NCBI GenBank assembly: GCA_030635415.1
Contig: DAOVYW010000001.1
Location: 1-34,078 of the forward strand
DNA length: 34,078 nucleotides
Reading direction: 5' to 3'
DNA from: Candidatus Firestoneibacteriota bacterium
Lineage (GTDB): Bacteria; Oederibacteriota; JAAXVQ01; JAUVAV01
In this document: positions 31,255 through 34,078 of the stretch, piece after piece
How positions within the stretch are numbered: the stretch's first letter is position 1
How the letters are laid out: each line of letters opens with the position of its first letter
Notes under the pieces: generated by a model
Databases searched by the model: none
Seen by the model: only the letters and a program-made list of their open reading frames with translations
What the model was told of the DNA's origin: nothing
Translations under genes and position numbers: made by a program

Positions 31255-32565
31255 ATGTTTAAAAAGATATTCTGGATATTAGGGCTGTCCTGCTTGGGTA
31301 TTTTTATGGTGGCAATTTGGTTCCAGAATTATTATTTCGTGAGCGAGTTTCCACAGGAGGGGTTGGTTCTGGAGGTGTGGAATAAACCCCCGGCGCGGCA
31401 GGTCAAAGCGCGTAAATTATGGAAGGAGACTTTGCTGCGTTTTGAACAGGAATTTTCTGACATTAAAATCCGGGGCTTAGAACGCAAATTTTCGCCCCAG
31501 GAGTTTATAACCGCCATGGCCGGAGGAAAAGGGCCGGACGTGATGCACATATGGATTGGAGCCCTTCCCGTATTGGCCCGCAAAGGTTTTATTGCTCCGC
31601 TGGATGAATATATTACGGAGTGGGATCAGAAGGACTATATTCCAGAAAGGGTTTGGGAGCCGGCCAGGGTGAATGGGAAAACTTACGGAATTCCCCGGGA
31701 CACCTATTTTACGGTTTTATTTTACCGTAAGGATTTATTTTACCGGGCCGGGCTGAATCCTGAACAGCCGCCCCGCGACTGGGAGGAATTGGTGCGGTAC
31801 GCGAAAATCCTTACACTTCCCGAAAAGGGGCAATACGGCTTTGGCTGGCCGTCCAATACCTGGAATTTTATGGATTTCGTTTGGCAGAACGGTGGAGAAT
31901 TAGTGGCGCGTAACCCGCAGGGCGGTTGGCGGGCCACACTGGATACCGTCCCGGTAGTCGAGACGCTTAAGTTTTTGCGGGACTTGAAATTGAAGCACCA
32001 GGTGCTGCCGCCGAGTGATCTAACCAGTCACGAGGATGTTTCGCAGATGTTTGCGTTGGGGCGTGTGGCCATGATGATGGGAGTGGCCAATCAACTTCCC
32101 ACCCTGATTAATAAATATGGATTGAATTTTAAAGCCGCCGGAATTGCTCCCTTGCCGGCCGGCCCCGCCGGGCTGCGGGCTTCGCATGCCGGCGGAGAAG
32201 TGTATATTATTAATTCCGCCATTTCCCCTGAACGCCGGGCGGCTGCCTGGAAATATATAGAATTTGAGATCTCTCCCGCCAATCAGCTCTGGAAGTGGGT
32301 GCGGATGAAAGAGTTGAAAATGATGGTATTTCCAGGGGCTTTTTCAGCTTCCACCAACCTTTTAAATGTGCCGGGATTCGCCATGGTTAATGAAGAACTT
32401 CAGTTTGTTCGCAATGAGCCGCATATGGAACAATGGATTTTAGTCAAGGACGCTTTGGATAATGGTCCGCTTCAGGCCATTTTCGTAGATAAGGATTTGA
32501 ACCTGGAGAATTATATGCGGGATTTCAATTATAAGATTAACCGGGATTATTTTTCCAAGCCATAA
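31255..32565 (+). CDS. ABC transporter substrate-binding protein (family-1 extracellular solute-binding, sugar type), membrane-anchored
   Basis: N-terminal anchor MFKKIFWILGLSCLGIFMVAIW. The overall pattern (GPDVMHIW..., YGIPRDTYF, FYRKDLF, WEELV) is typical of MalE/UgpB-like SBPs. A MalF/UgpA-like permease follows. Confidence 0.85.
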   Translation: MFKKIFWILGLSCLGIFMVAIWFQNYYFVSEFPQEGLVLEVWNKPPARQVKARKLWKETLLRFEQEFSDIKIRGLERKFSPQEFITAMAGGKGPDVMHIWIGALPVLARKGFIAPLDEYITEWDQKDYIPERVWEPARVNGKTYGIPRDTYFTVLFYRKDLFYRAGLNPEQPPRDWEELVRYAKILTLPEKGQYGFGWPSNTWNFMDFVWQNGGELVARNPQGGWRATLDTVPVVETLKFLRDLKLKHQVLPPSDLTSHEDVSQMFALGRVAMMMGVANQLPTLINKYGLNFKAAGIAPLPAGPAGLRASHAGGEVYIINSAISPERRAAAWKYIEFEISPANQLWKWVRMKELKMMVFPGAFSASTNLLNVPGFAMVNEELQFVRNEPHMEQWILVKDALDNGPLQAIFVDKDLNLENYMRDFNYKINRDYFSKP

Positions 32566-32577
32566 GGGAGCTTAGAG

Positions 32578-34078
32578 ATGTCAGCCCAAAGAAGAAAAAG
32601 ACTACCAACGGATTTTTTTGATCGATTGCTGTCCAACCAAACAGATAATCAAATCAATGATCTGCTCACTTCCCTGGTTGATGAACAGATCTCTCCGGCT
32701 TTGGAAACAGTCAAGGAAGAACCGCCGCGCCCGGCTCCGGCGATCACAGGCGTTGGTTATCGAAAAGGTATTCAGCAAGGTAAAATAGAGGAGTCTATTG
32801 TTACCCGGGATGAAGAACTGCAAGAAGAAGTGCCGGCTTTAGACCAGGACTCATCCTGGGAAGAGCTGATTCCCCGAACCAGGCAGATGCGAGCTCAGAA
32901 GATCACGTCTGGCGTCAAGGCGCCTGAGAAGACCGAGCCTGAGAAGACCGAGCCAGTTATTGATTTGCGTGGGCAAAACCAATTGGAAGCTGATACCCGG
33001 ATTTTAAAGGAAAATCCTCTGGCAGAGGAAGAAATCATATCAAAAGTTGTCGGTGCGCCGCCTCCCGGAGTGCATGGCGCTCCTGAAACTCCAGAGATTA
33101 CAGACATTTCCTGGCGGCCGGAAGTCCCCTTGCCGCCGCAAGATGAGGCTTCGCCTGGAGCAGATGAGGCTTCGCCTGGAGCAGATGAGGCTTCTGTGAA
33201 GGTGGAAGATGCTGGGAAGCCGGCACCACCGCAAGCCGCGGCACCACCGCAAGCCGCGGCACCACCGCAAGCCGCGGCACCACCGCAAGCCGCAGCACCA
33301 CCGCAAGCCGCGGCTCCGGCCCGGCCGGAGGATCAGGCCCCAACCGAGCCGGCAACTAAACCATCGGCTGGCCCGGCCCCGGATTTGCTTACGTATAAGG
33401 AAGCCCGGCGCAACCGGATTCAAGCACGCTGGGAAAGACCGCCCCGTAGACCTAAACCTCCCAAGATGGCAAAAGCCGTACCGTCTATTACGGTAAAGCC
33501 TTCCAAACTGGCTTTGCTGGATAACTACCTGGCTCCGGGGAGGGTCAGGGAGCGGCGGAAAATCATGACCAGAATTCACCGGGCCGCGCTGTTCTTTCTT
33601 TTGCCGGCCTTTATAGCTTTTTCTCTTTTTTCATGGTACCCCATGTTAAAGGGTTTGATGCTTTCGTTTCTTGACTACCAACCGGCCGGACAATCGCTTT
33701 TTATCGGAATGGACAATTATGTCCGGGCTTTTCAGGATGAAATGTTTTGGAGGACCTTAGGGCATGCCGCAGGGTTCTGCTTCTTGGCAGTAGGCATAGG
33801 ATTCTGGATTCCCATTATGCTGTCTATATTTATTAACGAGCTTCGCTGGGGAAAGGGTCTGCTGAAATTCCTGTTTTTTCTGCCATTTTTAATGCCTACT
33901 GTACCCGCGGCGATTCTTTGGAAATGGATGATGGATCAAGGGTTTGGACTGCTTAATGCCTTTATGGCCCTACTGGGGGCGGCGGATCCGCATATCGGCT
34001 GGCTGACCAATCCCAAGCTGGCGCTGTTCTCGCTCGTGCTGCTATATATTTGGAAAAACACCGGGTGGGCGGTTTTAA
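32578..34078 (+). CDS. carbohydrate-type ABC transporter permease (MalF/UgpA-like) with ~330-aa low-complexity N-terminal extension; 3'-partial (runs off window)
   Basis: Hand translation shows one frame open from ATG 32578 (AAGGGAG 7 nt upstream) to the window end with no stop, which is why it is absent from the ORF track. From ~33565 (MTRIHRAALFFLLPAFIAFSLFSWYPMLKGLMLSFLDY...) it is a typical permease N-terminus with successive TM segments. Alternative internal starts are ATG 33466 and ATG 33565. Confidence 0.8.
   Translation, partial: MSAQRRKRLPTDFFDRLLSNQTDNQINDLLTSLVDEQISPALETVKEEPPRPAPAITGVGYRKGIQQGKIEESIVTRDEELQEEVPALDQDSSWEELIPRTRQMRAQKITSGVKAPEKTEPEKTEPVIDLRGQNQLEADTRILKENPLAEEEIISKVVGAPPPGVHGAPETPEITDISWRPEVPLPPQDEASPGADEASPGADEASVKVEDAGKPAPPQAAAPPQAAAPPQAAAPPQAAAPPQAAAPARPEDQAPTEPATKPSAGPAPDLLTYKEARRNRIQARWERPPRRPKPPKMAKAVPSITVKPSKLALLDNYLAPGRVRERRKIMTRIHRAALFFLLPAFIAFSLFSWYPMLKGLMLSFLDYQPAGQSLFIGMDNYVRAFQDEMFWRTLGHAAGFCFLAVGIGFWIPIMLSIFINELRWGKGLLKFLFFLPFLMPTVPAAILWKWMMDQGFGLLNAFMALLGAADPHIGWLTNPKLALFSLVLLYIWKNTGWAVL
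33142..33194 (+). repeat. 21-nt tandem repeat x2.5 (GATGAGGCTTCGCCTGGAGCA; encodes DEASPGA)
   Basis: Identical units at 33142-33162 and 33163-33183, plus a partial unit at 33184-33194. A further 15-nt x2 repeat CCTGAGAAGACCGAG lies at 32923-32952 (PEKTE). Confidence 0.95.
33223..33312 (+). repeat. 18-nt tandem repeat x5 (GCACCACCGCAAGCCGCG; encodes APPQAA)
   Basis: Units at 33223, 33241, 33259, 33277 and 33295. Four are identical and one has a single synonymous GCG>GCA change. They are in frame within the permease extension. Confidence 0.95.

Follow-up and report, generated by a model that had tools for sequence, protein, structure and literature searches.

A conserved and predicted cytoplasmic arm at the N-terminus of a CUT1-type ABC importer permease in candidate division FCPU426

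Described importers and the extended permease

The permeases of type I ATP-binding cassette (ABC) importers, represented by SugA of the LpqY-SugABC system (PDB 7CAD, 8JA7), AlgM1 of the Sphingomonas alginate importer (4TQV) and MalF and UgpA of E. coli, share a membrane core of six transmembrane (TM) helices. A permease of the same type is encoded at the end of a stretch of DNA from a Candidatus Firestoneibacteriota bacterium, which is called the window here and has a length of 34,078 nucleotides (assembly GCA_030635415.1, contig DAOVYW010000001.1, positions 1 to 34,078 of the forward strand). The likeness to the SugA, AlgM1 and MalF systems extends to a family-1 substrate-binding protein (SBP) and, in relatives, to a second permease of the UgpE/MalG class and a MalK-type ATPase, and the long permease of the window is the first permease (UgpA/SugA/MalF class, CUT1) of such an SBP-permease-permease importer, present as a single copy in the genomes of its order. 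The difference lies at the N-terminus. SugA/AlgM1/UgpA-type chains comprise 277-338 amino acids (472-492 for full-length MalF, whose extra length is made up of additional TM helices and a periplasmic loop), and none of them carries an N-terminal cytoplasmic arm of hundreds of residues, whereas the permease of the window carries one for which neither a sequence nor a fold match was obtained in the PDB. The arm is undescribed, in a protein whose membrane part is that of an ordinary CUT1 permease.

Partial precedents come from three other kinds of protein. The C-terminal peptide of FtsZ is arranged with its anchor and linker in the order anchor, linker, conserved binding peptide. The arm shares this layout with SSB, which consists of an anchoring domain, a variable disordered linker and a short conserved terminal protein-binding peptide (bioRxiv 10.1101/797431). 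In contrast to SSB and FtsZ, the peptide of the arm is N-terminal, comprises 40 residues instead of 6-15 and is anchored in a membrane transporter. The ABC transporter Rv1747 of Mycobacterium tuberculosis also has a long N-terminal cytoplasmic region with a disordered linker. Rv1747 is an exporter with a fused ATPase and two FHA domains, which is controlled by Ser/Thr phosphorylation, whereas the arm is devoid of FHA or any other Pfam domain; a search of the 500-residue product against Pfam at E-values up to 0.1 retrieved no FHA domain.

To our knowledge, the post-translational control described for type I ABC importers is targeted at the ATPase subunit, via regulatory domains, EIIA-Glc or trans-inhibition. 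Regulation has been described as acting via domains of the ATPase or, in osmoregulated transporters, via terminal domains, and the charged terminal domains of BetP and OpuA regulate by switching between the membrane, loops and the N-terminus of a neighbour (PMC10710835). With BetP, ProP and OpuA the arm has the oppositely charged terminal segments in common, which in the arm are the acidic N-terminus and the basic helix close to the membrane; this likeness is one of layout only, no sequence relation having been found. The domains of these proteins cover about 25-60 residues and belong to other transporter classes or to an ATPase subunit, whereas the arm sits on a type I importer permease, is 5-10 times longer and starts with a sequence-invariant head. 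Disordered regions have been described in exporter-type ABC proteins (PMC13257379), and a permease-borne cytoplasmic arm is not among the mechanisms reviewed in PMC10710835. An earlier note on the same DNA knew of no described role for the arm, and we likewise found neither such a role nor any description of a cytoplasmic arm on an importer permease in the open-access literature.

Translation, conservation and architecture of the arm

The open reading frame (ORF) of the long permease is listed at 32578..34077 (+) and comprises 500 codons, remaining open at its 3' end. Since the window represents an entire contig (C245) of a 2.18-Mb genome (269 contigs, 89.7% complete), the gene is cut by the assembly and not by the window. 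Full-length products in relatives comprise 572-649 amino acids, compared to the 500 codons kept here, and the remainder of the gene is absent from the rest of the same assembly. Note that ORFs running off a contig end commonly go uncalled. The start codon follows the stop codon of the SBP gene (TAA at 32563-32565, context TAAGGGAGCTTAGAGATG) after 12 nt, and direct reading of the sequence identifies a Shine-Dalgarno (SD) sequence AAGGGAG at 32564..32570 (+), the GGGAG of which lies 7 nt ahead of the ATG at 32578. The chance of encountering the 329 stop-free codons of the extension in a single frame amounts to about 3e-6 at the local base composition and about 6e-8 at that of the genome.

The same architecture recurs in related genomes. 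A word-indexed search retrieved 30 homologues, 24 of which are N-terminally complete proteins of 535-656 amino acids showing 45-69% identity and carrying PF00528 at their C-terminus; the source records are labelled 'candidate division FCPU426'. A scan of about 185,000 species genomes for the pattern of the head, i.e., the first 40 residues of the arm, returned 13 loci, all from FCPU426-like metagenome-assembled genomes. In each of the 12 complete loci the ATG of the head is preceded by an SD sequence (GGAG/GAGG-like) and the frame runs into a CUT1 permease, with products of 572-633 amino acids. In a survey of the phylum based on 99 species genomes, a profile of the head detected one copy in each of the 15 genomes of the window's order, which consists of families f1 (10/10) and f2 (4/4) and the window's own genome, and none in 85 genomes of the other 21 families. 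A profile of residues 1-110 revealed no other architecture among 1.84 billion representative proteins, returning two low-complexity matches besides the family and its fragments, and no second copy of the head was found in the window's own genome. The possibility that the head is a module common to other proteins was therefore rejected, because it occurs only in this family among the 1.84e9 representatives and in a single copy per genome.

The head is the most constrained part of the protein and evolves under stricter constraint than the membrane domain. As many as 24 of 45 columns are invariant in the head alignment, and a codon-level comparison gave proportions of nonsynonymous and synonymous differences (pN and pS) of 0.08-0.09 and 0.76-0.90 (saturated) for the head, and of 0.15-0.17 and 0.69-0.82 (distant relatives) for the transmembrane domain (TMD). 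Since the synonymous sites in the head are saturated, the constraint acts on the protein and not on DNA or RNA. A second acidic motif further downstream shows a pN/pS of about 0.4-0.5, and the spacer following it is relaxed, yet still below 1, with dN/dS values of 0.27-0.63 against the two closest relatives.

These data leave hardly any room for the alternative of an untranslated leader or artefact, in which the frame would be open by chance or by an assembly error and the true start would be located at 33466 or 33565. ATG codons are indeed present at both positions, opening the sequences MAKAVPS (residue 297) and MTRIHRAAL (residue 330), and a GGGAG motif lies 12 nt ahead of the latter. However, the same frame, start and head recur in 14 genomes that were assembled independently, the extension is under purifying selection at the codon level, the chance probability is at most 3e-6, all tandem repeats (15, 21, and 18 nt) are multiples of 3, and the internal Met codons are not conserved, Met297 and Met330 being replaced by Leu, Phe, or Val in most orthologues of the alignment. 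We consider this alternative extremely improbable, and the cross-species evidence excludes it. No short isoform is conserved, but an extra one may exist in the window's species alone.

The earlier note had read a single open frame from 32578 to the end of the window, starting with a good SD sequence and an ATG 12 nt past the SBP stop, had regarded some 330 stop-free codons as improbable by chance and the extension as probably translated, and had placed a MalF/UgpA-type permease from 33565 onward. All of this is borne out by the frame and its calculated chance probability, by the 14 other species genomes sharing frame, start and SD sequence, by the purifying selection at codon level, and by the 88% identity to the TMD of a relative (locus L006) and the CUT1 orthologues. 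The internal starts it had named as candidates are not conserved, and the permease homologues with N-terminal extensions it had suggested looking for exist in 14 other genomes of the order and, with shorter arms, throughout the phylum. The arm is almost certainly real, translated, cytoplasmic and under selection.

The extension is rich in Pro (14.7%), Ala (13.2%), and Glu (9.9%), and its length in the window's order varies from about 290 to 350 residues. The alignment presents the conserved elements in the order of head, second motif, gap-rich and Pro-rich spacer with islands, and a basic motif before TM1. The head (residues 1-40, 32578..32697 (+)) is near-invariant across the order, with the consensus M..QR.KRLPTDFFDRLLSNQTDDQINDLLTSLVDEQI, and combines a basic patch (R5, K7, R8) with helices at residues 12-19 and 23-38. 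The second conserved motif, which is acidic, covers residues 69-106 (KIEESIVTRDEELQEE ... EELIPRTRQMRA; 32782..32895 (+)) and has the consensus KIEDSIVTRDEELDEE...ELIPRT..MQ, with I74, L81, I98, P99, and M104 invariant and E71, T76, and T101 almost invariant. It is followed by an acidic, Pro/Ala/Glu-rich disordered spacer (residues 107-271, 32896..33390 (+)) with a net charge of -14 and a Pro content of 20%, which varies among 14 sequences of the order from 123 to 181 residues in length, with a gap-rich alignment, and from -4 to -27 in net charge. The last element of the arm is a basic juxtamembrane helix with a polybasic stretch (residues 272-300, TYKEARRNRIQARWERPPRRPKPPKMAKA; 33391..33477 (+)), recognized from the alignment and the structural model of a relative. 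Its consensus reads HEEL.R.R..ARW.RP.RKPK.PKLAK, with R280, R284, R290, K293, P295, and A298 as invariant columns, and the net charge of residues 273-334 amounts to +6 to +15 in 13 of 13 sequences covering the segment. Searches for the arm in Pfam (E-values up to 0.1 on the 500-residue product), NCBIfam and PDB remained without a match.

The spacer evolves via gain and loss of in-frame repeats. Tandem Repeats Finder detected three of them in the window, a 15-nt unit present 2.2 times (EKTEP; 32922..32954 (+), 100% matches), a 21-nt unit present 2.6 times (DEASPGA; 33141..33194 (+), 100% matches) and an 18-nt unit present 5.2 times (PPQAAA; 33221..33314 (+), 97% matches). At the site of the PPQAAA repeat the closest relatives differ, one (P0001) carrying the unit AKPPAEQA and the other (P0002) no repeat at all. 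Conserved islands are embedded in the spacer, namely residues 154-170 (ISKVVGAPPPGVHGAPE; 33037..33087 (+), alignment columns 283-305), which recur in many orthologues as (I/V)S+VV.APPPGVHGAPE, and a further island across the alignment with the pattern LPGxExLEVPPELL. Two ORFs in other frames overlie the repeat tract (33040-33579 (-), 179 amino acids; 33209-33496 (+), 95 amino acids); these are Arg-rich shadows of the Pro/Ala repeats and not genes.

The membrane domain starts at 33565 and is retained for 171 codons (33565..34077 (+)) up to the end of the contig, with TM1 at residues 336-353 (nt 33583-33636) and the cited 88% identity to its counterpart in L006 extending over 176 aligned residues. 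Pfam detects no PF00528 in the fragment, which ends before that region, while all full-length orthologues carry PF00528 as well as an EAA coupling loop (EEAEIDGA...P, alignment columns 704-723); the best NCBIfam similarity is to UgpA, under the cut-off of that family. An AlphaFold2 (AF2) model of the same-genus relative P0002 (633 amino acids) contains helices at residues 12-20 and 23-38, a spacer with predicted local distance difference test (pLDDT) values below 50, a juxtamembrane helix at residues 289-301 with block-mean pLDDT values of 62-78, and six long TM helices after residue 339 with moderate values of 60-85. Foldseek relates this model to SugA, AlgM1 and MalF at E-values from 1e-7 to 1e-5. 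When folded alone, the head is predicted as coil in residues 1-11 and as helices H12-19 and H23-38, with a mean pLDDT of 73.

In the SugA/MalF fold, the ATPase is contacted by the EAA loop, which is located between TM4 and TM5; TM1 should accordingly run from the inside to the outside and the N-terminus should be cytoplasmic. This placement is inferred from homology, and the positive charge before TM1 agrees with it. The earlier note had likewise assigned the arm to the cytoplasm and had called it disordered and free of hydrophobic segments. The six-TM SugA/MalF-type fold together with the positive charge (+6 to +15) upholds the first of these statements, the low pLDDT of the spacer, helices being confined to the tip and the membrane-proximal part, the second, and the hydropathy profile the third: the maximal 19-residue Kyte-Doolittle mean of the extension reaches just 0.57 compared to 2.36 in the permease part, so a TM-like segment is absent. 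The description of the extension as a helical-looking head followed by a low-complexity region needs to be refined, since the two predicted helices of the head and the Pro/Ala/Glu-rich, disordered character of the rest were confirmed, while the head turned out to be the most conserved part of the protein and the low-complexity region to hold several conserved islands.

Shorter arms are found elsewhere in the phylum. A search with the TMD only revealed about 48 further genomes with an orthologue at 43-53% identity, and those orthologues that are not cut by a contig end have open frames of 418-489 amino acids, compared to about 300 in a normal permease. Each of 13 such orthologues that were read opens with a conserved head specific for its clade, in most cases with an SD sequence ahead, as in group A (M.E.FKPFSIYDDDEE) and group B (MSDDIFGKVGSDLSENAI.GM.DDEI). 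The head is followed by a spacer and, at a distance of about 55-75 residues from TM1, by a basic helix, which adds up to arms of 137-183 residues; the longest version is that of the window's order. Homology among the heads of the three clades was not demonstrable with hhalign (E-values of 0.05 and 0.16). All clades share a charge dipole, the first 30 residues having a net charge of -3 to -6 and the last 70 before TM1 one of +3 to +17. The layout of the arm, with an acidic tip and a basic base, is older than the sequence of the head.

Paralogous CUT1 permeases in other families form fusions of 804-847 amino acids (L048:319-2862, L049:120-2534 (-), L051:254-2704), in which a signal peptide, a complete solute-binding domain, one extra TM helix and the permease follow each other. 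The frames of 800-860 amino acids around paralogous permeases were therefore rejected as longer arms, as they represent SBP-TM-permease fusions.

Possible functions of the arm

Judged from the pattern of conservation, the arm may serve as a tethered ligand that binds to a site not belonging to the arm itself, a reading which we favour tentatively and would rate at somewhat less than an even chance. The head would then be a docking peptide folding upon binding, which the flexible chain would keep at a high local concentration by the cytoplasmic face of the transporter. Its binding to a conserved cytoplasmic site would either switch import on and off or couple import to a cytoplasmic partner, the docking site belonging either to a distinct soluble protein or to the MalK-type ATPase of the transporter itself, and the other conserved islands of the chain might add weaker contacts. 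The invariant polar residues of the head (N20, T22, D23, Q25, N27, E36, Q37) are distributed over all helix faces, and such an invariance, which includes uncharged polar residues, suggests an extensive and specific interface rather than a membrane-binding or spacer role. A membrane-binding amphipathic helix is also argued against by the acidic character of the head helices, and a passive spacer by the strong conservation of the head. A precedent is offered by SSB, where other proteins are bound by a conserved terminal peptide on a disordered linker (bioRxiv 10.1101/797431).

Several observations weigh against a docking peptide. The conserved neighbours of the gene, yqeK and a small membrane protein, offer no obvious partner candidate, and the heads of the different clades are not demonstrably homologous (hhalign, 0.05 and 0.16), which is unexpected for a slowly evolving target such as the ATPase. 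Moreover, the pLDDT of the head decreases from 73 alone to 56-66 in the full-length AF2 model, so that, as judged from pLDDT, the head is not predicted to dock onto the TMD.

The principal alternative is an electrostatic switch within one protein, in which the acidic head and spacer would fold back so as to contact the basic juxtamembrane helix, or would compete for this helix with anionic lipids, gating the transporter by ionic strength or crowding as in BetP, ProP and OpuA. The charge dipole is the one feature common to all clades despite their unrelated heads, spacer charges of -4 to -27 face juxtamembrane charges of +6 to +15 within the order, and the location of both partners in one polypeptide would let the heads diverge fast between clades; the charged terminal domains of BetP and OpuA provide the precedent (PMC10710835). 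However, a basic stretch before TM1 is already predicted by the positive-inside rule, the arms of group B are net basic overall (+10 to +16), and 40 near-invariant residues, some of them uncharged and polar, exceed the needs of a charge interaction. In addition, the SBP and the permease resemble those of a sugar or glycerophosphodiester importer, not of an osmolyte importer. By analogy with the osmoregulated transporters this switch deserves consideration, although we regard it as unlikely.

The docking peptide may also be pictured in a bolder version, in which the arm would turn a housekeeping importer into a signalling device. The head would be released and captured with the transport cycle and would report substrate flux via a cytoplasmic partner, making the permease a single-polypeptide 'transceptor', with a layout that is ancient in the phylum and with heads and partners co-diverging between the clades. 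We consider this version quite unlikely.

As a further alternative, the heads might self-associate into helical bundles, with the spacers acting as links that assemble the transporters into patches of membrane or into condensates. The two helices of the head are amphipathic (F13, F14, L17, L18; I26, L29, L30, L33, V34, I38), the spacer is long, of low complexity and rich in repeats, and Rv1747 may be regarded as a precedent among ABC transporters, as its disordered linker reportedly drives clustering. Clustering nevertheless appears distinctly improbable, since the valency is low with one long permease per transporter, an acidic spacer with few aromatic or Arg stickers makes a poor homotypic phase-separator, and the arm lacks the FHA or phospho-Thr elements that drive the clustering of Rv1747.

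Finally, a ribbon-helix-helix (RHH)-like head reaching the nucleoid and coupling transport to transcription by membrane-tethered DNA binding, as in PutA or CadC/ToxR, is scarcely conceivable: the pattern QRRKR-LPTDFFDRLL-...-DDQINDLLTSLV superficially resembles a strand, an LP.ELL..L helix A and a helix B, and the head occupies the extreme N-terminus as in PutA, but this reading failed because Pfam assigned no RHH family to 11 heads at E-values up to 10, an RHH_1 search of 15 genomes matched true RHH genes and never the permease loci, hhalign gave a probability of 0.6% between the head profile and 13 real RHH domains of the order, PDB profile and Foldseek searches against the PDB gave nothing, AF2 predicts no strand in the head (as a monomer), helix B is strongly acidic, and the sequences upstream of the SBP genes show a sigma-70-like promoter but no evident conserved operator.

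The operon, its neighbours and the meaning of the arm

The gene directly upstream of the long permease (31255..32565 (+)) codes for an SBP of 436 amino acids with an N-terminal membrane anchor or signal (SBP_bac_1 at 4.5e-34, SBP_bac_8), which is most closely related, among proteins of solved structure, to family-1 binding proteins for sugars, maltose and trehalose. It precedes the long permease in all related loci, where permease 2 (294-297 amino acids, UgpE/MalG-like) lies directly downstream; in the window its position would be beyond the contig end. The cassettes of the relatives consist of SBP, long permease and permease 2 only, without an ATPase gene, and an unlinked MalK-type ATPase with a TOBE_2 domain (frames of 371-373 amino acids) was present in five of five relatives tested. 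Neither a TOBE_2-type ATPase nor yqeK was found in the window's own genome (G000, 89.7% complete), although every complete relative possesses the two. The region past the contig end, comprising the rest of the permease, permease 2, a small ORF and yqeK, is simply unassembled in this genome.

An HD-domain gene follows permease 2 directly on the same strand in essentially every genome with an extended permease and in all clades, as judged from the coordinates of about 45 genomes. It represents yqeK, coding for a symmetrical Ap4A hydrolase (TIGR00488, 122.8 bits against a cut-off of 70; L006:9288-9893), and follows the ABC cassette phylum-wide regardless of the genes upstream. The usual neighbour of yqeK is nadD, which is located a few genes upstream of the cassette in the window's genus. 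We read the linkage as deep synteny without evident bearing on the arm, unusually deep for a transporter and a housekeeping gene, and rejected YqeK as a partner of the arm, since a real linkage to a housekeeping Ap4A hydrolase gives no mechanism.

A conserved single-pass membrane protein of 54-59 amino acids is encoded between permease 2 and yqeK in the order and in group B and is absent from group A and families f8 and f9. Its N-terminus is basic, its TM helix is C-terminal, and its motif reads (Q)ELDMAEHAARLRAIPG, or LDMAEHD.RLK in group B; it matches neither Pfam nor NCBIfam. The loci of the order are L006:9112-9291, where the gene overlaps the start of yqeK by 4 nt, L009:8424, L011:7688, L012:8749, L013:8734, L015:6479, and L017:8353, and those of group B are L070:981-1154, L071:988-1152, and L072:993-1163. 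The small protein was rejected as a partner of the arm, because it is missing in group A and f8/f9, which keep their arms. In one locus (L010:8851-9440) the intergenic region that separates permease 2 from the small ORF contains a long, perfect tandem array, with a unit of about 42 nt that translates into GTLRSPDRNRYYVK at least 9 times.

Upstream of the cassette, genes for a giant protein and an OmpA/CHU_C protein (clusters c10 and c7) are present in 10-11 of 12 loci, as exemplified by L003:1-8502 with a giant protein of 3141 amino acids (no Pfam match) and an OmpA/CHU_C protein of 772 amino acids; the window and its genus carry obg-proB-proA-nadD, a receiver gene and comFB instead of this pair. 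A sigma-70-like promoter with an extended -10 element, consisting of CTTGACA, about 17 nt and then TGTATGATC or TGTATTATC, is located about 60-110 nt upstream of the SBP start in L007, L009, L010, L011, and L012, which indicates that the cassette has its own promoter in these loci. L013 shows no more of this promoter than the -10-like TGTATGATC, some 190 nt upstream and at the border of the sequence read there.

The system as a whole is small, with three or four genes plus an ATPase, and the lineage is uncultured. The arm is kept without exception in the whole order, its tip is stricter than the membrane domain, shorter counterparts occur in about 48 more genomes, and the transporter sits beside yqeK in all clades compared. 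This points to an unstudied mode of regulating or coupling an importer, and it offers a clear case in nature of a membrane machine to which a conserved peptide is attached by a disordered tether.

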